A stretch of 20,530 nucleotides of DNA from Vezdaea acicularis (taxonomy: Eukaryota), in NCBI GenBank assembly GCA_026025075.1, contig JAPEUI010000004.1, positions 310,001 to 330,530 of the forward strand, given 5' to 3'. Within the stretch, counting starts at the first letter, position 1. The number at the start of each line of letters is the position of its first letter. Under the pieces are notes generated by a model. That model ran no database searches and was not told the origin of the DNA. It saw only the letters and a program-made list of their open reading frames with translations. The translations under genes and the position numbers were made by a program. Below, one piece after another: positions 1-19,234 of this stretch.

Positions 1-304
1 CTCCTTCTATTTCCTCACAGTGCTTGGTGTTATCACCTTGCGGGTCAAGGAGCCGAACCTTGAGAGACCTTACAAGGCTTGGATCACTACGCCAATTATC
101 TTTTGCTGCGTCAGCCTGTTCCTTATCAGTAGGGCAGTATTTGCGCATCCGCTACAAACGATAGTCGTTGCTGTGTTTGTACTTGCCGGGGTACCCGTAT
201 ACTACTGGCGCGTTTTGGATCGTGATAGCGGTCGAAGAGGTAGACAAGGGGCGGATTCTGTCTCAACATGGAAGTTTTGGAGAAAGTTGGGCTGGGGCGG
301 ATAG
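1..304 (+). CDS. 3' end of an APC-superfamily L-type amino-acid (LAT/methionine permease-like) transporter, 5' part outside the window
   Basis: Frame open from base 2: SFYFLTVLGVITLRVKEPNLERPYKAWITTPIIFCCVSLFLISRAVFAHPLQTIVVAVFVLAGVPVYYW. The LRxKEPxLERPYK motif followed by two hydrophobic helices is typical of the C-terminus of LAT/SLC7-type permeases. Stop TAG at 302-304. Confidence 0.85.
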   Translation, partial: SFYFLTVLGVITLRVKEPNLERPYKAWITTPIIFCCVSLFLISRAVFAHPLQTIVVAVFVLAGVPVYYWRVLDRDSGRRGRQGADSVSTWKFWRKLGWGG

Positions 305-911
305 TCTGTAGTCCGATACGCTCGTTGTGTTTCAAGCATTGCGTTGGCGCAATTCTTTGGCTGTTTTGGGAAAGAGTACAAGTGTATAGGCAGCATTTAC
401 ACATAGCGAGGTGTTATTGTGCTTGTCATAACGTTCGGATTCTCCTACTGCCAAAGTGCAAATAATGACGGAAAAGATGATATCCGCTCCTAGTATTAGA
501 CTACATTTCAGGAAAACCATCCAAGTAGGGGACTATGATGCTGGGGGATACCTAGGGTTCCTTCGTCTGCGAGCGTCCATTCCATAAATTTTGAGGGCAA
601 TCATGGTAAATCATGCTTTCACCTTTGCTCGCCTGTGATGCTTCCAACCTATCGAAGTCGACGAATGAATACCCCCCAACTCGCCCACATCACTCTATCC
701 ATGTTTCTTACCTCATAAAGGGGCAAGAATGAAACTCAATCTTTTGAGTGTTAAAACTTAATCGGCAATAATCAGAGAAAAGACTTACCAAACTCGTCTT
801 GGATCAAAGTGCCCATGATCTGTTAATGGCATTGGCGCCCCGCAATTGCCATCTTCTATGAGACTATTGTTTCACTAAAAGTCAGGATACATTGAAGACG
901 CAGACCTAATA

Positions 912-1868
912 ATGTCTAGCTACTTTCAGTCCTTTGCGACTACAGCAGCATCGCGATACAAAGATATTAAACGAACACTACTATCCGACGAGACGGATGG
1001 CGACACAGAAGATGACTCTCATGTTTCGCGAGTTCTACGAAATTATTACATGGAAAAGGGAAGACCATTTCCCCCCTGGCTTCCTCCTGATCCCCGACAA
1101 GCTCAACAATCACAATCGAACCAATATCCTGCTTCAGGGCGCCATTCGGCAAGTAATAGTGGGGGCCGGGGTGGAGGTAGGGGAGGGGGGCTATTGAGCG
1201 ATCTCTGGGATGGACCGCAAGAGGAGCCACAACCACCTGCGCATGCAGGGCCACAATCACTGAGGAAAGGTGGTGGCCAAATGGCTTCAAGGCCTGGGCT
1301 ACGTCCAGGATTGAGTCAAGGCACTGCCAGCCCTTACGACAGGGCACCAGCACCTTTACCAAGTCAACGAGCTGGAAGTTACCAGACCTCGCTGCGCCAA
1401 AGCAATTACAGTCCGCCGCCAGGTAGCACGACTTCTAATCGTAGCGCGCAAGAACGTCTAAAGGCTCGATTCATGGGAGGAGGCAGATCAGCAAGTCCTT
1501 CAGATTCTCCACAGCCAAGTCCGGCTTTGTCAGCGACTCCTCAGAGGCCCTTGTATGATAGGGGCGATAGCGGAAGAAGTGCGGCTTCGGGCGGTCGTCC
1601 CGATTATAGGGATAAGAGTAGGAGTTATGATGACAGGAGGGTAGGCTACAACGACCGTAATGACCAAGGTAATGCTTACGGCGGCCAAATGGAAAGTTCC
1701 AGTGGTGGGTCTACTTATCAAGGTAATGGCAGGGAGCAGAGACCCTATGCTGGATCGTCTGCTCCTTGGTCCACGGGCGAAGTTGAGGATGGTGGCGGGG
1801 GGAGAGGGTACGGCGATTTGGGAAGGAGATATGGAGCGAGGGGACCTAATGGCTCGAGGCCGAGATGA
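912..1868 (+). CDS. MSO1: Mso1-like protein (N-terminal Sec1-binding region, long disordered G/S/P/R-rich tail), 318 aa, single exon
   Basis: N-terminal DGDTEDDSHVSRVLRNYYMEKGRPFPPWLPPDP matches the Sec1-binding motif of fungal Mso1 as I recall it. ATG at 912, TGA at 1866-1868. Confidence 0.8.
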   Translation: MSSYFQSFATTAASRYKDIKRTLLSDETDGDTEDDSHVSRVLRNYYMEKGRPFPPWLPPDPRQAQQSQSNQYPASGRHSASNSGGRGGGRGGGLLSDLWDGPQEEPQPPAHAGPQSLRKGGGQMASRPGLRPGLSQGTASPYDRAPAPLPSQRAGSYQTSLRQSNYSPPPGSTTSNRSAQERLKARFMGGGRSASPSDSPQPSPALSATPQRPLYDRGDSGRSAASGGRPDYRDKSRSYDDRRVGYNDRNDQGNAYGGQMESSSGGSTYQGNGREQRPYAGSSAPWSTGEVEDGGGGRGYGDLGRRYGARGPNGSRPR

Positions 1869-2365
1869 GCGATCCTTTCTGTACTTCGAGGATCTTTGCG
1901 GGAGTCCAATATACCAAATAAAGGGTTCGTCCACATTCTTGAGCGATGAACTTTCAATAGGCTCTAAAGAGTGCCTGTACGGGCTGAGGCTTATAGTGCT
2001 TAAATTCCAAAACCCCCAACTCTTCCAAACGCTTCCAAGCAATTATCATGGGGGCCTAATGAGACGCATATAGGGCTCTTTATAGACTACTCCAAGCTTG
2101 TTGGCGTAACAGGGGTGCCGTGCACCGGACCCGCAGGGGCCGCGCATACCCACTAGTGAAAGCCGGTTATGACGCGGAAAACCCGACCCCGCCACGCGCC
2201 CAAGGTCATCTTCTCACGGTTGCCATAAGAATGGCTTAACCTACCAATATACCTAAGATTCCGACTTGGACCTCGGCCAGCTCTATTCACTAATGAGTTT
2301 TCCTTGAATACCATACGCTCGTTCACGTATCACGTTGCCCTTAGCCACGAAGCTCTTTCATCAAG

Positions 2366-5115
2366 ATGGCATCAAAGCAATATACGCCTCCAGTGTCGCC
2401 TCCTTCACCTACCGCATCTTTCTATGATCTAAGCGACGACGAAGAAGGGGAATATAACACAATCACACATACAAGCTCCGGGAGAGGCGTCAAGCTATTA
2501 TTCTCCAAGAGCAAGGTAAGTCACCATCTAACAATATTCTGGTGGAGTCTACACTCACATCAACATTTCACAAGCCTTGAAATTACAAAAGCTAATGTAC
2601 TTGTTCTGAATAGGTATATATCCACCCTACCCCATCATCCAAGGACAACATACCCGGTTTCATTGCCCTCGTCCAACAAAAGCCACCTAGACCAACAGGA
2701 GGTCCCGCACCTACATCTTCAGCCACAACATCCGAGTCTGGCGCGTCTTCACTCCTCCTGGCATGGCTACCAGAATTTTCGCTCGGCGATGCCTACAGTA
2801 CATACGTGAAAGTAGACCTGTCAGAGAACAACAGCCCACCGAAGCAATCATATCTCGTTCCACCGCCCCCGACCACCACGACGCATAGTAGTGCGATAGG
2901 CACATACGCCTTTGCTATCCCCGTTAGTGAAATATATTCTTTGTTGGTAAGGCCGCCAAGCATTGGGTGGTGGTTTGGTAGCGTCGTGATCAATAGCAAA
3001 TCTGGTGACAGCTTCCCCGCCCTTTTCTTCCACGACAGCGAATGCGAATCAACGATACTTCAACGGAAAAAACGTCACAGGGATAGCTTTGACCCGTTCG
3101 GAGAAGAAGGCGATCTGTTTTGGGGAGGAGACGAGGTTCTTAGATGGTTGAAGAGATACGTGACCGTAGAACGTTCAGGTGCCGAGCCTAGTGTCTACCT
3201 TATAGATCCCAGCCACGAAGATAAGATCGGTTTCGGAGGCAAGCCGACTACTGGCATTGCAAAGAATGGACGGCGGAAATCTAGCGCAGGGGATGTGGTC
3301 GTTGTCGCGGGGTCGTCTAGTGGACCTGCCACGTCTTCAGCAGGACGGGATGGTGGAATGGATCCTGTCACAAAGGCCCTCAAGGAGGCTCGGTGGAGCT
3401 TTCTGGAAAAGCTCAGTCAAGTCACCAACTTCACCCGAAGAACTGCAGAAACCGTTTTAGACAACCCGAAGTTACCACCACAAGTCAGACGGCTTATGAA
3501 AAATCCCGAGGTTCAAACACTCCAAGAGGAGTTCGACAGCGCTAGAATATACCTTGCAAGATGGGCAATGGGCATAGCAGAGCAGAGCGAACGAGAGAAG
3601 AATCAAAGGATATGGACTGCAAAAGATGTGTTGGAGATGGAAGACACCGAAGTCGGAGAATTCGAAGTTTTGGACCTTGAGGCTGGAAGCATGACGCTGG
3701 CTGATAAGCGAAAGCCTGTGACGCTTAAGGAATGGAATGGCTTCTTTGACGGACGCAGTGGGAAGCTTCAGGTCACTGCCGACGAAGTTAAAGAGCGGAT
3801 ATTCCACGGCGGGCTGGACCCGGACGATGGTGTCCGAAAAGAGGCGTGGCTCTTCTTACTAGGCGTCTACGAGTGGACGAGTACTGCCGAAGAAAGGAAG
3901 GCAGTCTTACACAGTCGACGAGATGAATACGTTCGTCTTAAAGGAGCATGGTGGGAAAGGCTCGCTGACAACGGCGGGCAAGGACAAGACGGTGAATCGT
4001 GGCGGGAGCAAAAAGCGCGTATAGGTACGTGACTGTTATAGGAATGCTTCAACTCAAGTAATTGCAGGCTGACTTTTGCCCATTGATGGGGACTTTCACT
4101 GTAGAGAAAGATGTTCACAGGACTGATCGTCACATCCCACTATTCAGTGGCGAGGATATTCCTCATCCGAATCCTGACTCGCCCTTCGCAGATGTTGGAA
4201 CGAATGTTCATCTTGAACAGATGAAAGATATGCTCCTCACCTACAACGAGTACAACAAAGGCTTGGGCTACGTCCAAGGCATGAGCGACCTTCTCGCCCC
4301 AATATATGCCGTCATGCAAGATGACGCTGTTGCTTTCTGGGGCTTTGCCAGCTTTATGGAGAGGATGGAACGAAACTTTCTCCGCGACCAGTCTGGCATG
4401 CGTGCTCAGCTGACTACACTAGATCACCTCGTCCAACTCATGGATCCGAAGCTTTATTTACACCTTCAGTCCGCTGAATCTACAAATTTCTTTTTCTTCT
4501 TTCGCATGTTGCTTGTCTGGTACAAGCGTGAGTTCCCGTGGTTGGATGTGCTGAGACTGTGGGAAGTCCTCTGGACGGATTATTTGTCAAGCCAGTTCCA
4601 TGTGTTTGTTGCCCTTGCCATTCTTGAGAAGCACCGAGATGTCATAATGGACCACCTGAAGCACTTCGACGAACTACTCAAATATGGTACGTATGACTAG
4701 ATCCTAAACAACATCCTACGTCATCACTGACATTGCTGCAGTCAATGAGCTATCAAACACAATCGATCTCCAATCAACACTCATTCGTGCAGAAGCTCTC
4801 TTCCGCCGCTTCCAAAGAACCGTTGAAGCTGTCGACAAAAAGGACAATTTTCCAGAGCCGAGACTACGACAAAGGAAAGCGGCTCCTGGCAACAGACCGA
4901 GCGACGTCCAAGGTATCGTTAACGGGCTCCGTGCTGCGTCAGGTTCAGATGCCACAAAGGGTGAAATTGCAACGCCAGCCTCCGAAGAGCCGAAAGAGGA
5001 GAAAGTCATCAGCCCCGAGCTCCGGGCTTTACTGAGTAGACAGTTCGTAACGATGGACAAGTCGGAGACGAAAGGTATAAGTAAAAGTGGGAAGGTACCT
5101 GAGCCTCAATTGTAA
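2366..5115 (+). CDS. GYP7: Gyp7-type TBC-domain Rab GTPase-activating protein; exons 2366-2515, 2614-4024, 4105-4686, 4742-5115
   Basis: Splicing restores KLLFSKSK|VYIHPTPSSKDNIPGFIAL, the TBC arginine finger RI|EKDVHRTDR, the glutamine finger GYVQGMSDLL, FFFFRMLLVWYKREF and LKY|VNELSNTIDL. Introns: 2516-2613 (GTAAGT..GCTAAT..TAG), 4025-4104 (GTACGT..GCTGAC..TAG), 4687-4741 (GTACGT..ACTGAC..CAG). Stop TAA at 5113-5115. Confidence 0.93.
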
Positions 5116-5913
5116 AAGTGTGTCCGTAACAGAACTTGGAAGTGATTGGCGCGCTCTCTCTGTCTGACAAGCTGCATGAATATTACGGATATTGCCCCCC
5201 TTTGCGGGATAGCGGTGAGTGAGGGTATGATGACGTCGGGAGATACATAAAAAATAAAATCCTATATTTCTCCATCCTGCTTCTATTGGTTTAGAAGTAT
5301 GCTCACGAGAACTTTTATCAACGTTTAGTCTGTCGCGTCCGAACGAGATAATCGTTTTGGCTGCTTCAGATTCATGCCCCCTCGAAGGATAATAGAGACG
5401 ATTGTTACTTCATCAATTCGAAATATTTCACCGGACCCAGCCTTTCTTTTGCAAGATCGTGTATTCAACATTGTGAATACCTGGATAGAGTGATACTTAC
5501 ACCATTGCGTAGGTGTAAGGTGGTAAACCTGATTTGTTTTACATTGCGCCTGGTCTCAGGGCGGATCATTTGTCCTTTCCATGGTCTCTTAACCTAAGCC
5601 TATATATGTTCATCCGGAGGGAACCTTACACCTTGATTGACTTGGTTCCGTAGTATTGCACTACTCGAAGGAGCGACTGCTTTCAAAAGTACGATGACAT
5701 TTGGTACTTGGGATGCTTCGTCTTACAACCCCTTGCGTCAGATTTTCTGAAATACAAGAGATTCAAGCATTTTGCCAAAATCTGAATCTACAATTAATTT
5801 CAGTCGTTTTTTATTTGTAGAAAAAACCGTTGATTGAGAAGTATTAACATACTCTCTTCTGAAGTCTTTGAAGCAACATTTGTAGCGGTCATTTCACCAA
5901 AGCGTCAAATATC

Positions 5914-8128
5914 GTCGCCGCGCCGATCATCGTCACAACAGTCATCTTATAAAGGAGCATTATATCATATGATCGCAAGTTGAAAAGGGAAGGGTGGTTT
6001 TAACACTGGTTCGTTGCGGCAACTATACTCACTAAAGCATCTGGCAGCATAACCAAGATCTCCACAATTGGTCCGTACGGGAGAAATGATATGTAAAAGA
6101 AAAGAAAAATTTCCCAAACACCGTAAACGTATAAAGTGGCAATATGAACCAAAATGCTGAAAGGTAGAAAAAGCTTTCCTTATAATTTTACAACTTAATC
6201 GCATAGGTTTTGCGGGTTAACTCTAATATTTCCCTTCTCTTATATTTCTCTGCGCGCATGTGCTCACTGTTTCCTTGCTATACCCTTCTCCTATGAATAT
6301 CACCGTAAAAGGAGTCGCTACGGTGATGCTTGTTGCTCTCCTAGAAGTGGAAAGATGATACACTGTCCTAACAAACGTTGCTATCTGCCTGCATGCAATG
6401 CGTCACTGCATGATTTGCGTATTTCCCAATGTTTCTCTTGCGGGATGCTAAATGATTTGTTGCTGTGACGATGATATATTATGTAAACGTGCATTGCATC
6501 AGACTATCATTACAAGTTGAGGGAGGCAATCCCTTTTATCATCCTCCTGCGCCCGCATTCAAGTAACCCAAGCATTTGCCGATCTCATGGTGTCGTTCCT
6601 GTTTGGTTTTCTGTAACTTACTGTTGTAATGGTGGATTACAAAGGAGTACTATATTCTTCTATTTCCATAGGCAACATATGCACAAAGTACGTGCACCTC
6701 TACAGCAAGTCCATATGCAAGAGCCTTTTACGTTTCGCCTCTTCCATACCCTTAATGCACTTGCAGCCAACAGTCACTCGACTATCACCATGGCGACAAT
6801 TTAAAAGGGGGGTTGCCTTGGGAAAAAAAGGATAACATACGTATAGAGAAAAAGGGGGGTGGCAGTCGCCGCGGTGACTGCGTTAATCAAAATGTTTGTG
6901 CGCGCAGCACGATTCGAACGCAAGTTCAGGGGGCCAAAAAGGAGCCAAAAAACAATCGCGAAGCAATCCAAAAGCTAACCAAAGTCCCCCAGACCAGCTG
7001 AGTTGAAAGTTTAAGCGCGGAACACATGAAATAGAGGCCATTGGCAGTTAAGGGGCACGTGGGAGTGGCAGCACGTGGTAAGACGTGCTTTGAAAAAATT
7101 TTCATTCCCATAACACAACAAATTTTCCACTTGCGACCTTCACTCTACCTCATCGCCGCGGCGATGGTTGTAAGTGCACTTTCAATCTGTCGCCGCGGCG
7201 ATGATCCTCCTATACACTCAACTGTATAGTCAACTCATTCTCCTATAATTCTTTCATTGCGTACTCCTCAAACCGAGTCAAACTGAGCCAACGTCATGGC
7301 AACTGTCGCCGCGGTGACACGTCTACCACTTTTTCTCCACCAATACTATTCGAGTATCTCGAGGGATATTCTCCTTTCTCTCAAGTCAAAACCAGATCAC
7401 ATCTTCCTCTTGCTGCCTAGAAATGTTTGTTCATAATAAACCTTCCTGTTAACAACTCCATGAGTCCCGCTGCCAACGTAGTGAACGTTCACTATTTCAC
7501 CCATCCCTCCACAAGTCTTTACAAGATTCAGACCTTCAGGGCTTTATTATCCATGTTGTCGCTGCAACTAATTGAGTGGTAAGTCCTTATCTACTCTCCT
7601 TTGTTTCCGAGTCCGAAAATTTTTTTATTTCTCGAGAATTCTTTCGAGAGACGTTTACTCATCAATCATCTCTATAGCAACATCGGGCATATACAACAAC
7701 AAGTTTGAAAAGGGTAGTCCGTACCAGATATGGGATAATATGTGACGTTTGTTGGTACTGAAAGTTGTTCGTGTAAGTAATGCAAATCTTGAAAGAGTTT
7801 TATCGTCTCTAACATGCGCAGCAGTTGTCAGTATACTCGTGGCCACAAGAGCACCCCTGAATTCTGTCAACAATATGTGGGGGCTCGAAAAAAAATTTGA
7901 AACAGTCATCGCCGCAGCAACAAAGTTCTCCAAATAGAGGCATGAAAAAAGTAGTTCACAGTTCCGCTCCATAAGTACTCTGGTGACTTTAAGCGAATCC
8001 GCTGTACAAAAAGACACTGCAAGATGGGGAGAGAAAGACATGTTTATAAACAAAAATAGAGAAGTTAGATGAAGTTATGATAAGAGAGACAGTCTGAAAG
8101 TTTGAGAAAAATACATCGCCGCGGCAAC
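5914..8128. repeat. Dispersed family of about 10 copies of a 14-bp palindrome, consensus RTCGCCGCGGCGAY
   Basis: Copies at 5914, 6314, 6459, 6784, 6865, 7152, 7189, 7305, 7908 and 8115. Examples: perfect CATCGCCGCGGCGATG at 7151-7166 and GCAGTCGCCGCGGTGACTGC at 6862-6881. Degenerate copies differ mostly by C>T/G>A. Confidence 0.75.
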
Positions 8129-8190
8129 AGTTGTCATGTTGACGGTGAAGGATGAGAGTCCTCTGCGCGCCGCTCGTTTTGCCCGACGGC

Positions 8191-8315
8191 TGGGGAGCTG
8201 CCCTCTCGACTTTGAGGGCATCCAATGAAGAGGTGGGAGTCGTTCGTCTTGGCGACTATTGGGGAGTCGCCCTCTCAACTATGAGGGCATCCCCCGGAGA
8301 GGTGGGAGTTGCTCC
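8191..8315. repeat. 69-bp-period tandem duplication containing a GCCCTC-N8-GAGGGC hairpin
   Basis: TGGGGAGCTGCCCTCTCGACTTTGAGGGCATCC..AGAGGTGGGAGT from 8191 versus TGGGGAGTCGCCCTCTCAACTATGAGGGCATCC..AGAGGTGGGAGT from 8260. Confidence 0.8.
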
Positions 8316-8728
8316 CGTCAGAGCTCCCTCCATTTGCGCCTCTCCGGTGGACTGGAGGATGGGATAGAGAGCAATCGGACTGACGGCTGCTGCTCTCTGG
8401 GGATGTTTTCCGAACGTGAAGGCATCTCGGTGCACGTCTTCCGTGACAGGCTGGCAATATGGACGGACGTCTCGCGTTGCCGCCTGTCATGGAAGACGTC
8501 CCAGTCAAGGGATGGTGAGGTCTTCCAAACCTCACCAGACGCCCTTGGCGGGTCTTCCGTGACAGGCCTGCCAACAGCACGTCTGTTATGGAAGACCTCC
8601 CGGCTAATCGGTCGGGAGGCACTGGCGAGACAAGGAAGCGGTTCTTCGACATTCGAAGAACTGCTCGAACGGATCTGTGGTGTGGCTGTTGGTCCACCAC
8701 AGGGATGTCACCCTACAACGCTGGTGGT

Positions 8729-9032
8729 GAAGGGGGGCCTTCGAACGGTTCCTTCTTCGTCCCGAAAGGGGGCCGTTCGGGCGGTTCCCTCTTTGTCCTG
8801 AAGGGGAGGCCTTTCGTTTGGGTTCCCTCTTCGTCCCGAAGGGGGGCCTTTCGCTTGGTTCCCTCTTCGCCCCGGAGGGGCCCCCCAGGGTTTTCTTCCC
8901 TCTTCGTCCTGAAGGGGAGCCCTGGGGGTTTTTTCCCTCTTCGTCCCGAAGGGGGCCCCTCCGGGTTTTCTTCCCTCTTCGTCTCGAAGGGGGGTCCTTG
9001 GGGGGTTCTTCCCCCTTGGTCCGCGTTGAAGG
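8729..9032. repeat. Tandem array with 36-38 bp period: conserved hairpin core TTCCCTCTTCGTCCCGAAGGGG plus variable linker (7 full and 2 partial units)
   Basis: Cores start at 8749, 8785, 8823, 8859, 8896, 8933 and 8971, with a degenerate one at 9009 and a half unit at 8729. Confidence 0.9.
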
Positions 9033-9312
9033 CGTCTGCCTACAGCGCTGGTGGCGACGATTGTCGCCACCTTTATATATATATATACGACGAAAATAGC
9101 AGTCTCTATGGAGCTGCTATTGGGGAAGGATGGGCGGGCATCTGGGTCCATTGGACCCGGTGCACCTTGGCCCTATGGACAAAAAGGGGACACGCGGTGT
9201 GCCCTGCTTGGGAGCAGCGGAGGGGCACAAGAGCGTTGCTCAAGAGGCAGCGCCCGGTGCAGGGCTTTCCAGAGAGAAAGCCCAAGTCAATGCCCCCTGC
9301 TCCCTGCCCTTT

Positions 9313-9456
9313 TTCGCCCTGGTCCGACTGGAGTCCTTTGTTCGCCTCGGTGCGACTCGAATCCTTTGGTCGCCTCGGTGCGACGGAGCCGTTCTTTGTT
9401 CCTCTCGGTGCTCGACCCGAGCCGTTCGTTGTTCGCCTCGGTGCTCGACTCGAGTC
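9313..9456. repeat. Degenerate tandem sub-repeats (about 5 copies, roughly 26-33 bp) with core TCGCCTCGGTGC(TC)GAC
   Basis: TTCGCCTCGGTGCGACTCGA, GTCGCCTCGGTGCGACGGAG, TTCCTCTCGGTGCTCGACCCGAG and TTCGCCTCGGTGCTCGACTCGAG occur in succession. Confidence 0.75.
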
Positions 9457-9743
9457 GTGTACAACTGGGAAGGTAAAGGCCTTTCCCAAGCGCCAGTGGA
9501 GGATGCAAGAGCGCTCCGCCGCAAAGGAGGCCGAGCCGACAACACACGGTTCCTTCGGCCTCGGAGCCCCTCGTCTTGCGAACGACGCAAGGAGGTTCCC
9601 AAGCCGCGCGACGAGTGCGAGACCGGCTCCCTGCTGCTCCCGCTGCGCACGAGGCCTACGACTGGGAAGGTAAAGGCCTTGCCCAAGCGGCCACGCCGAA
9701 TGCAAGAGCTCGCTGCCGCTCCGTTGCTTACAAGAATGCAAGA

Positions 9744-9919
9744 GCGCCCTGCGGAGGAAGAAGCAGAAAAGGCGCATTCGGCGCTGTCGGCCTCGGTGCC
9801 CCGCGACTTGCAGGTGAAGCAGCGCGTCAGGGCGCCCTGCGGAGGAAGAAACAGAAAAGGCGCATTCGGTGCTGTTGGCCTCGGTGCCCCGCGACTTGCA
9901 GGTGAAGCAGCGCGTAAGG
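9744..9919. repeat. 88-bp tandem duplication (4 substitutions)
   Basis: GCGCCCTGCGGAGGAAGAARCAGAAAAGGCGCATTCGGYGCTGTYGGCCTCGGTGCCCCGCGACTTGCAGGTGAAGCAGCGCGTMAGG at 9744-9831 and 9832-9919. An older duplication beginning ACTGGGAAGGTAAAGGCCTT lies at 9464 and 9661. Confidence 0.9.
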
Positions 9920-10185
9920 GCTTCATCCGAGTGGAGGCGACGCACGCAGGATGTCTCTTTTTCTTTCTCTCGGAGACAGCGCCGATAGCGGCCTGTCTCT
10001 GCCGGTTTCCAAGAGGCGGCGAGGATACTCTGTTGCGAGGAGAGCTTCGGGGAGTGGGAGTCGTTCGGACCACGCTGCGGATCCAAAAAACGCAAAGGCG
10101 GCCCCGTGTCAACAGGCTCAACTACCATGTATGCACTTGGGCGTTGGGCTGGTGTGGGTGAGTGGGATGTCCGGCTGTCAGTGGA

Positions 10186-10598
10186 CTCGCGGTGATATGC
10201 GCAAGCAGCGCGTTATCACCCAACAATTGCAGTCTGCCCCTCGCCCGCTTTCTAAGCGCTGGTGGGAATACTCTGCGGCAAAGAGCGCTCGGGGTGGCTC
10301 CGGAGCATGCGGATCCGAAAAATGACCTGAGTCGACCAGCCCTACGAAGTCAACTCTCGATGTTGTTTGGGGTGTTGAGGTTCGAGATGTTCGGGGTCTC
10401 GCGGTGATGTGCGCATGCAGCGCGTTTTTCACCCGTCGATTGCGGTCTGCCCCTCGCCCGCTTTCTAAGAGCTGGTGGGAATACCCTGCGGCGAAGAGCG
10501 CTCGGGAGCAGGGATCGGGCAATGCCGATTCAGCCGCAGGGCCGGAGTCGACCTGCCCTACGAAGTCAACTCTCGATGTTGTTTGGGGTGTTGAGGTT
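10186..10598. repeat. About 200-bp tandem duplication (10186-10382 and 10398-10598) with conserved flanks and a divergent internal segment
   Basis: Both copies start CTCGCGGTGATRTGCGCA, share GTCTGCCCCTCGCCCGCTTTCTAAG and end GCCCTACGAAGTCAACTCTCGATGTTGTTTGGGGTGTTGAGGTT. Confidence 0.9.
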
Positions 10599-10610
10599 GG
10601 GCATGGGGGA

Positions 10611-10689
10611 CTTTGAACGGGACGCTTTGACCGGGACGCTTTGAACGGGACGCTTTGAACGGGACGCTTTGAACGGGACGCTTTGAACG
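10611..10689. repeat. 14-bp minisatellite (CTTTGAACGGGACG), about 5.6 copies
   Basis: Units at 10611, 10625 (one A>C), 10639, 10653, 10667 and a partial unit at 10681. Confidence 0.95.
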
Positions 10690-10771
10690 AAAAACTATAT
10701 ACGAAACACATTGCATGAAAGACTTCCGAATGGAATGTCGAATGCGTCGGGGAGAGCTGGGGCGTGGTGTG

Positions 10772-10910
10772 GAAATGATGGCCGCTCGTCGCGCAGAGCT
10801 AGAGCGGCATCACGAAACTCACACAGCCCCGGCTCTACGAGCGGAGTGGAAGAGGAACCGAAGTGGAAGTGAAATGACAACCGCTCGTCGCGCAGAGCTA
10901 GAGCGGTGTC
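10772..10910. repeat. About 40-bp duplicated hairpin module
   Basis: GAAATGATGGCCGCTCGTCGCGCAGAGCTAGAGCGGCATC (10772-10811) and GAAATGACAACCGCTCGTCGCGCAGAGCTAGAGCGGTGTC (10871-10910). Confidence 0.85.
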
Positions 10911-11159
10911 TGTCATGGATTTCCATACGGCGCTGGCTGTACGGGGGGCTTATCACCAGCTCCTCGAAATTATAGTGATGTGCCAGCCAGTCTTCCAAAC
11001 CCATATGGAGCGAAATGAAATTTTTCGTGTCTGGGTTTGTTGGGGGGGGGGAGTGAGGAGAGGGGGGAGGGGAGAGGGAGAGGGGGGGAAAGGGGGAGAA
11101 GGGGGCTAGGAAGAGGCAGGTGCATGGGGAGAGGTGGGAAGCGGCAGGTGCATGGCGGG

Positions 11160-11290
11160 CTTTGAACAGGATGGCTTTGAACGGGATCGCTTTGAATGGG
11201 ATCCATTTAAACAAGATCGCTTTAGATAAGAGCGCTTTGAACAAGATACTTTGGATCGGATGCTTTAGATCGAATACTTTAAACCAGATC
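11160..11290. repeat. Degenerate 14-15 bp minisatellite, 9 units, related to CTTTGAACGGGACG
   Basis: Units at 11160, 11175, 11190, 11205, 11220, 11235, 11249, 11263 and 11277 (CTTTGAACAGGATGG, CTTTGAACGGGATCG, ... CTTTAAACCAGATC). Confidence 0.85.
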
Positions 11291-11501
11291 ACTCTGCACC
11301 AGCCCAATCTCTTATACTCATCTAAACGAGATAGACTCAAGTCGCCAACTCCATTCCATTCAATTCAGTTCCATTCCATCGAAGTTTTTCCTTTCCTCTG
11401 CACCACCAAAATAAGTTCTGCAGAAGTTTATCATCTAGAGCAAGCAAGTAAAGATGAATGCGAATTAGATAGGTTTTTTTTGGTCTTGTGCGCAAGGCGG
11501 G

Positions 11502-12904
11502 TCAGGCGCTGTAGGAGCTGATGTAGTACTAGAGCCAGAGGCGGGTTAGGTGGGTAGGTTGTAGATGCATGAGAGAAGAGGGAGGAGGGAAGAGGGAAGG
11601 GGAAAGAAGGGGAAAAAGGGTTGACTGACCGTCAAAACAGACTCCTCAGCGTCTTCATCCTCGCCCTCGAGGTAAACATACAGAATCAAGGCTTGCTCAT
11701 GCACGAAACCTATCCCCACAGACATCAGCGCCACCCTCCTCCCCCCCTTAAACCCCCAAAAGAGAAAAGAGAGAAAAGAAAGAGAGAGAAAAAACTCACA
11801 AGCAATAACCCTCCCCCCGAGCCTCCCCACACTGAGCACCCTCCCCCAATCCCGCCCATCAATCCGGACCCGCGCCCACCCGCGCTCTTCCCCGCGCGGC
11901 ACCGCTTTCATCCGCGTACTCGGATGCTCTGCAACGCCTTCTTCGCCACCGACGACTTGTCTGGCGTCAAGTTCCGGGTTCGCGAGGCCGGTCCATGTAC
12001 TCTCGATCTTCAGCGCGTCCGTAGTGACGCCGAGACGCAGGTCCCCGTGCATGTTGGCTGATAGGTCGAGTTTGGGGGTTTGGCCGTAATGCGTGTTAGT
12101 ATTGTTGCTGCCACCGCCGCTGAAGGCAGAGCTACTACCACTACTGCTGGGTAGGGAAAGCTTGGTGAAGCGCTCGGAGATGCTTTTTAGTTGCAGCAGG
12201 GGAGGGAGCAGGATATGTACGTCTGGTTCCCGACAGCGGGGTTCGTGGATGCCCTCGACGCTCGCGGCGGGGAGGACGCGCACGGGGATGTCCTGCGTGA
12301 TGATCGTTTCTCGGTCGCGGGCCCAGGAGTCGTCGATGAGCGGGCTGGGATCGTCCGTGGTTAAGCCTGGGGTGGGGGTTGGTTGGTGTGAAGAGCGCGC
12401 GGTGGCGCTGGTGTGTGTGGCGCTCACGATTGTGAGGGATAGCGTGGGGATGTTGTCCTTCTTTGTGAGGCGGATGGAGGCGGAACTTGCGGTTAGGGCG
12501 GAGCGGAGGGCGCGGGAGAGGGGTTGGAGGGGCAGTTCGAGGTTTATCACGTTGGAGGGGAGGGCGGATTCGAGGAGGTAGGTCGAGGAGAAAGTGTCGA
12601 TTGAAAGGACGCTGCCGCGGGGGAGGAAGTTAGCATAGCTGCGGGTTGGGAAAGGGGGGAGAGGAGAGATATACGCCCACACCTGCGTCCCCTGCTCCGG
12701 AATGATCGTGAAGCGGACAGAAGTGTCATCAAGACGGAGCCACGCCAGACGCCCAAGTGAAGATAGCGAGGCGATGAACTCTATACTCCTCCATCATCCT
12801 ATCAGCGCCCATCCATTGCTCACAACACACTGAACCACGAAAGAGAAGCGAGAGGGTTTACTGTGGAAAGTATGCACGTTCTTGATCTGGCTTTTGAACC
12901 GCAT
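11502..12904 (-). CDS. HUS1: Hus1/Mec3 subunit of the 9-1-1 DNA-damage checkpoint clamp, 355 aa; exons 12904-12862, 12780-12675, 12611-11800, 11709-11630, 11528-11502
   Basis: Spliced product MRFKSQIKNVHTFHKFIASLSSLGRLAWLRLDDTSVRFTIIPEQGTQVWAVLSIDTF...NVINLELPLQPLSRALRSA...IRLTKK...ITQDIPVRVL...EPDVHILLPPL...VIACFVHEQALILYVYL...VLTYYISSYSA* carries hallmark Hus1 motifs. Four GT-AG introns with CTRAY branch points. Exon total is 1068 nt, in frame. Confidence 0.92.
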
Positions 12905-12939
12905 ATTTGAGCGTTTGGTTGGCGGGCGGTGATGTCTGA

Positions 12940-12976
12940 CCGCGTCTGGATGTCGGTGGGGGGAGACGCGACGCGA
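12940..12976. promoter_or_regulatory. Cluster of three ACGCG (MCB-like) cores just upstream of the hus1 ATG
   Basis: CGCGT at 12941-12945 and ACGCGACGCGA at 12966-12976. MBF/MCB control is common for fungal replication and repair genes, but short GC motifs can arise by chance here. Confidence 0.35.
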
Positions 12977-14045
12977 TGAGGGGCAGATGGTGCGGCCCTG
13001 ATCTCACTTACGAAGGAATCCCAGCGCCGTCACCAGCCGAACCACCACCACACAACCAATAAAGCGATTTCCAATAAACCCCTCCCCTTCCACCAACCAT
13101 CCACCAAAAAAGTACGAAATCGAGCCGAGAAATAATTCCATACCCACCCTCACTCACCCTCCCACCATCCAAACAAAGCACCAGACCCAACCCCTCGCAA
13201 CCAGAGCAAGCGAGCAGATCCACCAACCCGTCAAGAGCGCTCGAGGCCAAAGTCCCACCCGCCGGAGACGATGTGGGAGACGCACCAAACAGCTCTCAGG
13301 CTCTAGCGAGGAACACGAGGGAGAAGAGAGGGGAGAGAAGGAGGGGGAGGGCCCGGTGCAAGGAAGTACAGAGATAATGTCAGGACGCGGTACCCATTTC
13401 ATTTTATAATCACTCGCATCCGCAATTCTCATGCACGCGTCTAGCAGGATATGTATGTATCTGCCATGCTCAATTTCTCTACAAACTCTCCCATCCCATC
13501 CAGCCCGTCCACTGCCCAAAGGCCTTTCCTTCCCTCCTACCACCCACTGCTCGAGAGGACATGAGTATAACCCATCCCAACCTACTCGCCACCCATCGAC
13601 CGCCGCAGAAAAAACAAAGTTTGCCGCCTTACAGAGAAAGAGAAACAAAAAAGAAAGAGGGAAAGAAAGCCGCCGCCGCCGCCGCCGAAAAAAAAAGCCC
13701 AGCAAGAATGGTTTTTGTTCTCCGCGCTCCCAGGCCATGCATGTCCAGATCCAGATTCCGTTCCAAGACAAAGGGGAGGTGACGGGGAAAATCCGTCGTG
13801 GAAGTTTGAGTGCGCGTAAGTGTACAATAGGGCCGCCAGCCAGTCAGCCGAGTTGGAGAGAGGGAGAGAGAGAGAGAGGTGTGTGTGAGGGAGCCGATGA
13901 TGCCGTAATAACACATGCGGGGGGAAAAGGAAATTCTGAAAATGCGGGTGTGATGCGGGAAGAAAAGTGGGAGAAAAGGTGGGAGGTGAGTGATTGCAGG
14001 AATTGGGTGTCCAAAGCGTAAGGGGAAGAATTTTTATATGCGTGC

Positions 14046-17000
14046 TCATGCCCATCGTGAGAAATCAAATCTATTGAGACAAATAATATTAGCACGAGAA
14101 TGGATGGGTGAGACGAAGAAAAGAGGAAGTAGGGCACTCACGACTCCAAAACGCCATCACAGTCCGTCGCCGCGGTCCCCGTATCCGTCTCCGTCGCCGT
14201 CGACACCACGCTCGAGCGATGACTGCTCAGACTATCCGTCAGGAACGTCGCCGTGCTGGCCCGCCGATTGAGGCTCTCCCGCTGCACCTGGATGCCGCTG
14301 TCCCTCGACGAGAGCAGGCTATGGTTACCCGTCGAGGTGCTGGCCGTGGGCGCGTGCGAGGGTGTGTTGTAGTGCGACGCCGACGATGGCGCGTGCTTCT
14401 CGCGGAGCTTGACGATCTCGCGGAGGCGGTTGCGCCAGCTGGAGATGTGCTCGCCGCCGTCGCGCGTGGCCCAGACGAGGGAGAAGACCGAGGCGTTCAG
14501 GGCGATTAGGCGCACGAATGCGGGCAGGCTCTTGCCCGAGATGATCTTCGTTTCGGACGCTGGAGAGATCTCGGGGAAGCCGGGCTTGCTCATCACTTGC
14601 ACCTTGTAGAACAGATTGTCGGTCTCCTGGCCTTCGATATGCGTGCGCGTGGCGACGAAAGAAGCGCGGGATTCGGGCGTAACGACGATATTTACATAGT
14701 TGAAGTCGGAGGGAAAGGTGTCAAAGCGGAAGGGCTGGCCGGAATTATTAAAGATGATATTGACAAAGTCGTTGCCTGTGTGGCGCTTCTTGTTGATGCA
14801 TTGAGGATCATGTTCCAGGTTCGTAGGCATCATGGTCGTAATGTGGTAGACAATCTCCGTCACGCGGTCGCGCCAGCAATATGTGAATTGGCCGTCCGTG
14901 TCGTGCTCCCGATCGAGGCCCTGAGTATTGAATCGAGCGCCTTTGAGCCGTGTCAGGGTACCGAGTCTGCCCAGTAGGTCCGTGTAGTCATGGCTACCCA
15001 TCACGTTGGCGAGAATCTCTTGCTCCGTGCTTTGGTTCTCCCCAATGTAAATGACCCCGACCTTGTGGCCGTCGACAGTGGAATTACGATCAAAGGTGCT
15101 GATAGCGCGAGCGGTCATGTCGTCGTCAGGCAACGGTATTGGACGCAACGCTTCAGGCAGGCCGTACGAGGTTGCTGAAATCTGCAGAAAGATATGGCTG
15201 GGCAGCACGGCCACCCGTGAGCTCGCATCTTTCCCTTCGTGCTTCGTATCGGTGGTCGATATGATCTGGTGATGGGGCATGGGCGCCCGCTCTAGCTTGA
15301 AGATGGAATGCGAGGTGCCCGAAGGCTGCCGTTTTGTGATTTGAGAAAGGCCGGTCGCTGCCGCGGTTTCTACCGTCACAATGCTGAGTCCATCGAGCCA
15401 CGACTTCTTCATCACTTCTCCATCGGAGACCGAAGCGAAATAAGGGTCGTGCATCGTCTCGTCTAAGTCCGAGTAGGCAACTCTCTGCATCATGTCGATC
15501 GTCACCTGGCTCTGCTCATCCATACTCTCTCGCCCATTGATATCCGTCGAGATCAAATTCTTCGTGATCCATCCGACGTGCTTTGCTCGATCCACAACTT
15601 TCAGCGACATGAACCAAAATGTCATGACATGATACGCCAGTGCATATACGTATTGCGGAAGCTCATCGGCCGTGACTGGGCTTGGTTTGTGGTCTGTCGG
15701 ACCGTTGTAGTCCTTGGTCGTCCCACCCTGCCGGCCAGATGCGTAACTGGTCCTCGTTGAAGTTGGGCCAGAGCCTTTCGCCCGTTGATCCCTCACATAC
15801 TGAAGATAGCGGAAGCATATGCCAAAGACGGTACGAAAGTCATCCTCTCTGAAGTTGACGTAGATTTCGGGCATCCGTGCAAGCCCAGCGAGGAACTCTA
15901 GCACGTGTACGGCGACATGGGCTTGAGTAATGATCTGCGACATCTTCTGTAGGATAGTGTTCATGGACTTGCTGATGGACAGAGGAACTTCGTGGCAGCA
16001 TATTGTCAGAGCATGTATGCATCGCTTGGCAGTCCGCTCCCAGGATCCAACGCCGTGCATGAAAGTGCGTACGATCTCGTCCTCTTCATTCTTCGAAAAG
16101 TGCCGAGAGTAACTCAACACCATGGTAAGGGTGTGAAACAAGCAGATGGTAACATCCGCTTTCTTCAAACCAGATGAGGGCGGCGGTTCGTGAAAGCTGT
16201 TGCCTTTGATCTGCTCACATATCACACTACGCAGCAGTTGGATCTGCGGTTTCGCTCCTTCGAACAATGAATGATTGGTCAGCTGAGAGCCTAGATGCAC
16301 CAGCACGTGGCTGTAAATCTCCCAGTCGCCTCCTTGTTGTATAATCGAGATGAGCACCTCGAGCCATATGTTCATTGCCAATACGGTCCTTGGCTCTTCT
16401 TCTCGAAGCTTCTCTGCAATCTCAACCGGGCGGTCATCAAACGAGTGCAGCAGGTGACTCGGAGTGGATGGAGGATCTTGAGGAAGTGCATTCTCGTCTG
16501 GGTATTTCCAAAGCGGTATGGAAGATGGCAGGTACTTGTTCTTCCCAGCCATCGAGCGTGTATTCGATCTCGACATGTACGAGTGGGGATGGCCTGCGGA
16601 GGTACTGCGGTTGGACCTGACCGAACTAGCGTCATCAGCCATAGAATGCCGACTGGGTGGAACCTCCTCCGGAACGTCGCGTAAATGTAAGACTTGAGTC
16701 GTCCGATTGAGTGCAGACGCTAGTCCATCACTGTCAAGCGTCGATACGATTATCATCGAGTGGCTGGAGTCGCTCCTGAGCCGGAATAAGAGCTTCATCG
16801 CGCTCAGACGTGCGTCCACCGCGCATGTTTCTGATCTAGCAATCTCCAAGATAATCTCAAAAGCTTTCAATGCTTTCTCTGCCGATTCATTAAAGGCACG
16901 CATGAAGATGTGCACAAACCCGCGAGCCACGACATTATCCAAACTGTTTGTATAATTTGAAATAGTCGCAGATGAACTCGGACGAGACTCGTTCTTCACA

Positions 17001-18970
17001 CTTGACGAAGAGTTGGTCGAGGGCGTGTCAGGAAGGCGTAGTGTGGCTTGGAGAGACTCTACGATCCGAGCAAAGAGCGCCTGGTCTGCATCGTCTCCGA
17101 CTTCCACGGCAAAGTTCACCAGGACTTGAAGGACCTGGATGTCTCGTTCGTGTTGGATATCGTCGAGCACGGCCCAGATGAGCTCGTCCACCGCAGCTGC
17201 GTCATACACGTCCTTGATGGTCTCGTAAACGTCCCGCATAGCGCGAAGCACGAGCAATCTGACGGGCGTATGCCGATTTCGTGTCCTGAAGAATGCATCT
17301 ATGAGGCGGTTTGAGTTGAGGAGCCAGTTCGTGTTGGAAGGATAGCACAGATGCTCTTCGATGTAGTAGTGTATCAGCAGCTCGGCACAAGAATCGGAAA
17401 GACGATTGTGGACGCTGAAGAAGAAGTCTATGATCTTCTCCTTCTCGATGATCTCGAAGCGGTGGAAGAGAGTCTCGATCTTGCCAAAGATCGAGTTCAG
17501 TGAGTCAGTCATCATGTTCCCTATCCTGATTTCTTTCGTGTCTTTTTGGTTCATCAGGTCGGAGTTATCGAGCAAGGTATCCGCACGCCCCGACGCATGC
17601 CGGAGAACGTTCAGTAAGTTTGAGCAGTCTTCCTCCAAAAGAGCGTCCACAATCTCGCCTTCTCCGAGCAAGTTGTCGATTGTGGTGACAATATCGAGCT
17701 CCAGCCGGGCGCTGTCCGCCGCTAGGGCTTTCCTGAAAGATTCGAGAGCGACCTGCAAGGGGACTAAGACGAGACTGTCGGCACCGTTTGCCATGATGAG
17801 CTTCTGGATGATGCTGAGGGCGCCGCGAATGGTATTGGTATTCCGCTCGGCGCTGTTGGACTTCCGGAGCACGTTGAAGAGAGCGTTCAGGGTCAGTTGG
17901 GCGACGTGCGAGCGACAGAGATTGGCAATGGCGTTCCACGTGATGTCAGCCAAGGGTTTCAGCTGGTTGTAGATGCCGCACAACACTTCGATGCAGGGCG
18001 AGAGGATTTCTTGGGGCAGCGTGCCATAGGTGATGATGGCGTCGATCAGCTGGATCGAGTTGCGAATATCCTGCTCGGATGTCGTTCGGCGGCAAACGAC
18101 CAGCACTTCCTCCAGCAATGCACGCACGTCCAATTCGGCAAAGATCTTGTAGTTGTATTTGACCACGTTAATGATGAAATTATACAGTTGCGTCAGGTTC
18201 GTCTCTTCACCCAGCGTGCCGTTCGTCCGGAACAGCTTGTCCTTCTGGGCGGTGCGGGCGGCCACGGAGGCGATGAACCAGGACTTCAGCCATTGGGTCA
18301 GCAGCGGAAGGATGGAGGCCTCGAAGGGATGGATACTACGCCCGTCACTCGTCAGGTCCCTCATCGCGCTGAGCTGGAGATGGAAGTCATCAGGGTTCAA
18401 GGGGGCCGAAAGGGTCTCATAGAAGGCTCGCCGTTGCAGGGGCTTATGGCTCGAATGGTTTACACACGCGGTCAGAAGTTCAAAGCCGGCGCCACGAACG
18501 TCTTGCGAATGCCTCGGATCCAGCAAGTCCTTGCTGGCGGACCAGATGTCCACGATGTTATTCGACGTCAACGGTTCCAAGTTCATCCGCAGGGCCTGCG
18601 CCGCCTCCACCCTCCCCTGCAGCGGTTTCCCCGGCTGCAGCTGCTGCCCATACTGCTGGATATAATCGGGCTGGCGGCCCAGGAAGAGCTCGGGCTCCCC
18701 ATCCCCGAGTCCCACGAGCGTGCCTCTGCTGCGACTCCGCGTGAGGGTGCCATGCGAGCTCGGCGAGAGCGAGCTGGCGGCGGCGGCGTTGACGGGTGCG
18801 GGGTTGCGATGCAGACGGCCGCCGAAGGTGCTCTTGAAGACGCCGGCGATGCCCGAGCTACTCTTCGACTCGGGGGTGTTGGGGGCGTCACCAGACGGGG
18901 GAGACATACGATCCCGCGAGATGATGGGGGACAATGGACGTCGGGAATCTGGAGCACGACGACGATCCAT
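14046..18970 (-). CDS. TSC2: Tuberin (TSC2), Rheb GTPase-activating protein, about 1620 aa; exons 18970-14142 and 14070-14046
   Basis: Long ORF with an N-terminal helical region, a tuberin domain (DWEIYSHVLVHLGSQLTNHSLF, CIHALTICCHEVPLS, LAYHVMTFWFM) and a C-terminal Rap/Ran-GAP domain (HKVGVIYIGENQ, IVYHITTMMP, KKRHTGNDFVNIIFN with the asparagine thumb). First ATG at 18970 (alternative 18907); the ORF-track start at 18979 is TTG. Intron 14141-14071 is GTGAGT..GCTAAT..TAG. Confidence 0.93.
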
Positions 18971-19234
18971 GGTCAGCAAGCTTTCGGATGGACATGTTCA
19001 ACGCAGGTAGATAAGAAGATGATCACAGTTAGGGGGGGGGGCGTGTAGAGGATGTTCGAGGTATGAAGTATGAAGTATGAACTTGTCTGCCTTCACCCAT
19101 GCGCCGGCGGAGAAAGTGACGGTGGAGCAGAGAGAGAGAGGGAGCGCAGGAGCTTCGTAAGGAAAAGGTTTTTTGCAGGGTGAGGCATGCGAGTAGGAGA
19201 GACGAGCAGACGAGCGACGTGAGAGGGTGCAATG

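Follow-up and report, generated by a model that had tools for sequence, protein, structure and literature searches.

The question raised by this locus is whether a non-coding stretch of about 3 kb is a folded RNA, a mobile element or an accumulation of DNA repeats. The stretch lies at 8130-11300 of a 20,530-nucleotide window of Vezdaea acicularis (contig JAPEUI010000004.1, positions 310,001 to 330,530; by the window we mean this whole stretch of DNA, to which all coordinates and strands refer), between the genes for a RabGAP-TBC protein and for Hus1. An earlier note, made from the sequence alone, had described 8150-11290 as an element of near-continuous hairpins whose + strand tolerates G.U pairs and folds as single-stranded nucleic acid. 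The reading that we favour, with about even confidence, is that the stretch is a single-locus, lineage-specific, non-coding complex minisatellite spacer, the palindromic units of which make the hairpins.

The stretch is tiled by at least ten families of direct or tandem repeats, all in + orientation (Tandem Repeats Finder together with a repeat finder). A blastn comparison of the window with itself assigned at least 44% of 8130-11300, but 0% of the three remaining regions, to internal direct repeats, and it found no inverted matches inside the stretch. The short repeat motifs are likewise confined to one strand, and the repeat periods are mostly not multiples of three. Many of the repeat units are themselves imperfect palindromes, as in the 37-bp unit and hairpin H7, and in hairpins A, B and H4 with their common GTCTTCC. 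The features of the stretch are given below, together with folding z-scores (z+ and z- for the two strands) obtained by comparing the minimum free energy (MFE) of sliding 150-nt windows with that of 40 dinucleotide shuffles.

8130-11300, no strand assigned: non-coding repeat mosaic, the right half of the gene-free gap; GC 59.5%
8184-8314, + strand: two 69-bp direct repeats, 79% alike, each with a GCCCTC...GAGGGC hairpin
8361-8708, + strand: hairpin core of eight nearly abutting stem-loops (RNAfold, as for the eight that follow)
8361-8399, + strand: core hairpin H1
8400-8428, + strand: core hairpin H2
8429-8502, + strand: core hairpin A, 31 MFE pairs, with an 18-bp outer arm holding one G.T at 8443/8490
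8508-8545, + strand: core hairpin H4
8546-8602, + strand: core hairpin B, paralogue of A, with GTCTTCCGTGACAGGC...ATGGAAGAC common to both
8598-8626, + strand: core hairpin H6
8637-8665, + strand: core hairpin H7
8669-8708, + strand: core hairpin H8
8729-9022, + strand: tandem array of a 37/38-bp unit, 7.4 copies, each unit an imperfect palindrome CCCTCTTCG-TCC-CGAAGGGG
9045-9124, + strand: two short perfect hairpins (9050-9071 and 9095-9121) flanking a (TA)n run; no strand preference
9307-9458, + strand: tandem repeats of 28-33 bp, about 3.5-5 copies; z about -1
9460-9719, + strand: two 63-nt direct repeats, 197 nt apart, 81% alike (repeat finder)
9740-9921, + strand: 88-bp tandem repeat, 2.1 copies, 93-94% alike (Tandem Repeats Finder and repeat finder)
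10176-10605, + strand: tandem duplication of 212-216 bp, 85-92% alike; z about 0
10611-10689, + strand: 14-bp tandem repeat CTTTGAACGGGACG, 5.6 copies (Tandem Repeats Finder)
10745-10935, no strand assigned: second structured block, a 99-bp duplication (10772-10906) with long-range hairpins
11020-11140, + strand: polypurine (G/A) tract, which reads CT-rich on the - strand; Tandem Repeats Finder entries at 11042-11105
11159-11281, + strand: degenerate tandem repeats of 14-15 bp, the right end of the mosaic, abutting the Hus1 3' region

Direct repeats of 24 nt bracket the 37/38-bp array (8707-8730 and 9034-9057). The degenerate repeats at the right end are related to the 14-bp array, since 10611-10715 and 11190-11298 are 69% identical in the blastn self-comparison, and this is the sole direct match at a long offset.

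We found no coding signal in these repeats. The Pfam search of 30 open reading frames (ORFs) from the gap gave no match, the one hit at E=0.038 being below the cut-off, and codon log-odds are about zero throughout 5100-11400. For two long ORFs, 8519-9673 on the + strand and 9106-10212 on the - strand, no homologue was found at E<=0.001 among proteins of 0.55-1.75 times the query length.

The stem-loops listed in the earlier note are real, and they are unevenly spread. A hairpin search in which only Watson-Crick pairs score, and which so carries no G.U bias, recovered those at 8366-8398, 8434-8499, 8513-8537, 8551-8597, 8637-8665, 8675-8702, 9050-9071, 9095-9121 and 9262-9283, and RNAfold displays those at 8199-8220, 8402-8426 and 8598-8617. 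Hairpin counts were 10 in 8150-9200, three in 9200-10700 and two in 10700-11300, and 11 in the remaining 15.85 kb. Folding excess follows a similar pattern. Across 8376-9126, z+ was below -3 in nine of 11 windows and z- in six of 11, with extremes of -8.8 and -8.6, and the three windows at 10701-10851 gave z+ of -3.5, -2.0 and -3.5 (two of three below -3) and z- of -3.6, -2.1 and -1.6. Among the 20 windows in 9201-10626 neither strand gave a value below -3 (z+ between +1.5 and -2.5), and z was ordinary in 8151-8301 (three windows) and 10926-11226 (five windows); the pair of 69-bp repeats at 8184-8314 folds no better than shuffles (z+ of -1.3, -0.2 and -1.6). The 107 control windows outside the right half of the gap had a mean z of about 0 with a standard deviation of 1.3, one of them falling below -3 on the + strand and four on the - strand. 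Folded as one piece, 8360-9130 reached -441 kcal/mol on the + strand (z -20) and -361 kcal/mol on the - strand (z -10.6; 20 shuffles each). Excess structure is restricted to 8376-9200 and 10700-10930, about 0.8 kb and 0.2 kb. The description of a near-continuous hairpin element of about 3 kb was consequently overstated, as only some 0.8-1 kb is exceptional and 9200-10700 is indistinguishable from shuffles.

Both strands of the hairpin core fold well. With RNA energies 8361-8708 gave z+ of -9.5 and z- of -6.7, and with DNA energies -7.7 and -7.3; this equal folding of the two strands with DNA energies is as expected of DNA palindromes, of which hairpin H7, GTTCTTCGA-CAT-TCGAAGAAC, is an example. 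The region of the 37/38-bp array (8710-9030) gave z+ of -8.2 and z- of -5.0 with RNA energies.

Repeat number changes in a close relative, 98-99% identical. Contigs from three DNA runs of one moss-metagenome study, which contain 18-33% of the sampled window words, were compared with the window over 4000-13000, where they leave about 8816-9116 and 10923-11223 without cover. The relative is about 94-99% identical piece by piece, and its contigs run across the mosaic's left and right borders (7934-8226 and 11210-11418) with the same junctions. It has one 88-bp unit fewer (the joint from 9788 to 9877 skips 88), carries rearranged or extra 212-216-bp units (joints from 10508 back by 206 to 10303, and from 10190 to 10461, skipping 270), and has a rearranged unit left of 9501, in the region of the 63-nt repeat pair. 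All reported joints of the relative fall within the tandem part; changes of repeat copies are seen only in 9500-10830, where further loose ends also occur. No indels are seen in 8251-8766, where substitutions number 5 in 461 nt and 7 in 317 nt (1.1-2.2%). Divergence in the flanks is 0.6-1% (4000-7100), 2-4% (7200-8100) and 4.7-6.4% (Hus1), so that the substitution level of the core lies within the flank range and no special conservation of the hairpin core can be seen. Farther afield, an exact pattern of the conserved hairpin arms had no match in JGI metagenome contigs. Metagenome contigs anchored on Hus1 gave seven loci of 37-57% identity, none of which provided an orthologous spacer for comparison; one long contig among them was non-syntenic and held one small tandem repeat in 20.9 kb.

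As in complex minisatellite islands, adjacent tandem arrays of palindromic units of 14-213 bp make up a non-coding stretch in which repeat number, here that of the 88-bp and 212-216-bp units, differs between near-identical relatives. Unlike the islands of ribosomal DNA (rDNA) or subtelomeres, the stretch lies between two single-copy nuclear genes. We infer that short units, from 14 to about 213 bp, were duplicated locally and in tandem many times over, through slippage or unequal exchange, to give the stretch, and that it would have no sequence-specific function. Several of the amplified units would have been imperfect palindromes, with CTTCG-NNN-CGAAG cores and GTCTTCC...GGAAGAC arms, and their copying and divergence would have produced the abutting hairpins at 8360-9120 and the second small block at 10745-10935, while the units in 9200-10700 would have no special fold. 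The hairpins would then be a property of the DNA repeat units, not of a 3-kb folded molecule. They probably also help to cause the amplification, because hairpin-prone units favour slippage, and the array would continue to change its copy number.

Three short motifs recur within the stretch or between it and its surroundings. The 7-mer GTCTTCC has six of its nine window copies inside the element (3.7 expected window-wide; one of 100 shuffles reaches nine). The 12-mer GTCTTCCAAACC of hairpin H4 (8520-8531) is found by eye again at 10990-11001, 2.5 kb rightward. GCTGGTGG occurs four times on the + strand (8720, 9047, 10258 and 10471), with 0.65 expected and none of 100 shuffles reaching four; only two of these occurrences are independent, because the four sites fall in two pairs of duplicated units.

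The edges of the mosaic could suggest a different origin, and we consider it improbable that the stretch is the relic of a non-autonomous mobile element (LARD/TRIM-, Helitron- or foldback-like) that had inserted into an AT-richer spacer and then had its interior expanded by tandem duplication. The GC content shifts sharply at two places, near 8130 (from 42% to 60%) and near 11300; the stretch has a long polypurine tract (11020-11140), and the subterminal regions of DNA transposons often contain internal arrays of short repeats and hairpins. A kilobase-sized non-coding stretch with internal structure is also what LARD, TRIM and retrozyme elements are like. LARD and TRIM elements, however, have two long terminal direct repeats, and retrozymes a hammerhead ribozyme in each terminal repeat. 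No direct repeat joins 8130-8400 to 11000-11300 in either the repeat finder or the blastn self-comparison, and Rfam gave no ribozyme, hammerhead included, at the gathering score or at E<=5. As for terminal inverted repeats, the best match between the two ends covers 19 nt at 79% (8161-8179/10879-10897), which is chance-like; blastn found no inverted match, and the repeat motifs all lie on one strand. Helitrons begin with TC and end with CTRR preceded by a GC-rich hairpin, and insert between A and T; a check by eye found no hairpin followed by CTRR near 11250-11340. The Pfam search of the gap ORFs found no remnant of a transposase or reverse transcriptase.

The relative and the base composition speak against an insertion as well. 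No empty site was seen among the relative's contigs, which bridge both junctions, and no target-site duplication was found. Contig depth on the element (6.9 and 5.5) matches the values on either side (6-8), which weakly suggests a single copy, and no further copy appeared among JGI metagenome contigs searched with the arm pattern or in the protein collection searched with the ORF translations. With a GC content (0.595) about that of the neighbouring genes (0.53-0.61), the mosaic is not compositionally foreign, and the odd part is rather the AT-richer left half of the gap (5070-8130; GC 42.5%). The LARD- or retrozyme-like candidates of the earlier note thus lack terminal repeats and a ribozyme, and neither a second copy nor an empty site was found in the contigs and proteins searched.

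That the stretch is a displaced fragment of an rDNA intergenic or external transcribed spacer, or GC-palindrome DNA of organellar origin, as had also been proposed, we regard as highly improbable. Spacers of rDNA are the textbook repeat mosaic, and a mosaic of sub-repeats with GC-rich hairpins resembles them in a general way. Against this stand the failure of Rfam 15 to find SSU, LSU, 5.8S or 5S RNA in the 20.5-kb window, the lack of any hit in a tRNA/tmRNA scan of the window, and the nuclear genes of single-copy type on both sides. Neither Rfam nor the Pfam search of the gap ORFs gave mitochondrial rRNA or other organellar gene fragments. Depth equal to the flanks in the three runs, with none of the many-fold excess expected at an rDNA match of at least 85%, points the same way, though it is a weak measure. 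GC is 60% throughout the mosaic, which is not the AT-rich context of an organelle.

The remaining explanation concerns RNA. It is possible, although we hold it to be doubtful, that the stretch gives a + strand non-coding RNA (ncRNA) in which the hairpin run at 8400-8710, possibly extended to 9030 by the 37-bp array, is kept foldable as RNA. Such a transcript could offer proteins a repeated binding platform, or its hairpins could be the precursor from which Dicer makes small RNAs; the transcript might start at a promoter-like cluster at 7040-7320 or a TATA-like site near 8045 and run towards the Hus1 3' end. In its narrower form, which we hold slightly more tentatively still, the run at 8400-8710, perhaps with the array to 9030, would be the folded core of an undescribed + strand ncRNA of an orphan lineage among the filamentous ascomycetes, either a hairpin-array scaffold or a clustered small-RNA precursor, on which selection tolerates G.U and not A.C.

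Several observations argue for such an RNA or weigh against a minisatellite spacer as the whole account. In paired-shuffle tests, in which each of 60 shuffles was folded on both strands, 8360-8710 favoured the + strand beyond composition with RNA energies (z(diff) -3.3; matched by 0 of 60 shuffles), and so did 8710-9030 (z(diff) -2.5; 1 of 60). Hairpin by hairpin, four of 18 reach p<=0.05 for the + strand (H2, B, H6 and H7), and all are neighbours in 8400-8665; for hairpin B the + excess is -10.3 kcal/mol, matched by 0 of 150 shuffles. Within the core a + excess is seen for H2, A, B, H6, H7 and H8. In the MFE fold of 8360-8710, G.U accounts for 20 of 134 pairs on the + strand against 5 of 116 on the - strand. 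None of the differences between the stems of paralogues A and B is disruptive; one is compensatory (C-G to G-C), and three are one-sided, all leaving G.T on the + strand. A preference for G.T over A.C is not predicted by a pure DNA-level model, and a hairpin core with an RNA-type (G.U) strand bias is not expected of plain minisatellites. The repeat copies in 9300-10910 show strand-symmetric transitions (A/G 14, C/T 12), so that a C-to-T bias on the + strand is unsupported as the cause of the G.T excess, in a sample that is small and unpolarised. Furthermore, the core has no indels in the relative while 9500-10830 is rearranged, and GC skew is positive on the + strand throughout 8000-11500. Finally, the gene-free gap of 6.4 kb (5070-11546) between RabGAP-TBC and Hus1 is unusual beside the other intergenic gaps of the window, which measure about 0.5-1.3 kb.

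The same tests also set limits to an RNA. Paired shuffles gave no + advantage in 10700-10930 (z(diff) -0.2), 9200-9550 or 9900-10250, and only nine of 18 hairpins favour the + strand beyond composition. With DNA energies the strand difference is non-significant (z(diff) -1.5 and -1.6), so that the asymmetry would have meaning for an RNA molecule only. In the set from the Watson-Crick hairpin search the stem mismatches were four G.T, no A.C and one other, and there are at most three independent events, because the wobbles at 8443 (A) and 8559 (B) are one ancestral wobble. These events are few and are common to paralogous hairpins and tandem copies, a sample too small for a test. The shuffle null takes no account of the shared descent of the repeats, and its numbers are small. 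The substitution level of the core is not below that of flanking non-coding DNA, no homologue was found beyond the one near-identical relative, and covariation is limited to the A/B pair. What survives of the proposal that the + strand folds as single-stranded RNA is a folding advantage beyond composition over about 300-650 nt (8400-8710, weaker to 9030), with RNA energies; a structured element of 3 kb does not survive. The comparison with dinucleotide shuffles on both strands likewise gave a local excess and a strand difference, and no excess over half the stretch.

Searches for known RNAs bear on the same question. Rfam 15 at the gathering score matched nothing in the whole window, and hence no known structured RNA family. 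At E<=5 on 5000-11600 it gave 10 weak matches, look-alikes of microRNA hairpins that are well below threshold and best on both strands (mir-3017 scores 34.6 bits, where the gathering score is 51). A telomerase-type template was not found either, no 8-mer of (CCCTAA)n, the canonical repeat that we assume here, occurring on either strand of 5070-11500. Neurospora has microRNA-like RNAs (milRNAs), and the long near-perfect stems of the core (18+6 bp, 17 bp and 13 bp), with G.U but no A.C on the + strand, are like their precursors; the likeness is one of hairpin shape only, as the Rfam microRNA scores are sub-threshold and found on both strands. The A-repeat of Xist is a hairpin-repeat module of a long ncRNA, and the array at 8729-9022 resembles it in form only, with some 7-8 tandem GC-rich hairpins and pyrimidine-rich linkers on one strand beside further hairpins. 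The array shares no homology with that module and belongs to a fungus. A full-text literature search returned nothing specific to such fungal elements, a result that makes no claim on what is in print.

Pfam placed four eukaryotic genes of fungal type across the window, with RabGAP-TBC and Hus1 convergent.

912-1868, + strand: Mso1
about 2366-5060, + strand: RabGAP-TBC protein, with an ascomycete-style intron visible at about 4687-4742
11546-12682, - strand: Hus1
14138-18979, - strand: tuberin/Tsc2

The closest Hus1 homologues are 55-63% identical, and those with names belong to lichen-formers and other filamentous ascomycetes. The DNA of the window is nuclear and comes from a filamentous ascomycete which, because its best Hus1 homologues are no closer than this, has no close sequenced relative in the collection searched.

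The divergence of the moss-metagenome relative follows an odd gradient over 9 kb. Hus1 coding sequence (11848-12843) is 4.7-6.4% diverged with many small indels, and the 3' part of the TBC gene with the non-coding left half (4000-7133) only 0.6-1.0%; the gradient may come from a mixture of strains or from a boundary between haplotypes. One of the runs has a contig with a loose end at 8057, which was considered as an empty-site allele joined to the right flank and rejected, its 12-nt motif occurring nowhere else in the window.

The left half of the gap has features of its own. Its dinucleotide ratios (TpA/ApT 0.53-0.83; (CpA+TpG)/(ApC+GpT) 1.17-1.20) are without the signature of repeat-induced point mutation by the usual index thresholds, and a transposon mutated in this way is not evident. 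A 12-bp palindrome, TCGCCGCGGYGA, is present seven times with at most two mismatches (5915, 6866, 7153, 7190, 7306, 7909 and 8116), all in this AT-richer half and the last at the edge of the mosaic; the whole window has 24 strand-matches where 4.0 are expected, a number that none of 100 shuffles reaches. Its form, TCG-N6-CGA with a CCGCGG core, is one which we take to be reminiscent of zinc-cluster sites such as TCGN5CGA of AflR and TCCGCGGA of Pdr1/3, and the palindromes may mark a regulatory region. A promoter-like cluster at 7040-7600 holds two CACGTG 16 nt apart (7056 and 7072), the perfect palindromes at 7153 and 7190 and a TATA-like run, with an ATG (7460) and a GTAAGT (about 7579) farther on. 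Over the whole window CACGTG shows no enrichment (five found, 4.3 expected). The 150-nt window at 7051, with z+ of -5.2, is the sole control window below -3 on the + strand. A small unannotated gene or an ncRNA on the + strand could begin at this cluster. Hus1 and Tsc2 are separated by another non-coding gap (12800-14100, about 1.3 kb), which contains several short G/A-rich microsatellites (13321, 13855 and 13961) and one window with z- of -3.9 (12951).

To our knowledge, catalogues of structured long ncRNAs and of hairpin loci for small RNAs are poor for filamentous fungi, and no such RNA or locus is known from this lineage. If the stretch is a minisatellite island only, it would be an ordinary, if striking, fast-evolving spacer, useful mainly as a hypervariable marker for the fungus. 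If the local + strand G.U bias reflects a real RNA, the stretch would be of more importance, and an array of hairpins that faces a checkpoint gene would offer a regulatory unit open to testing.

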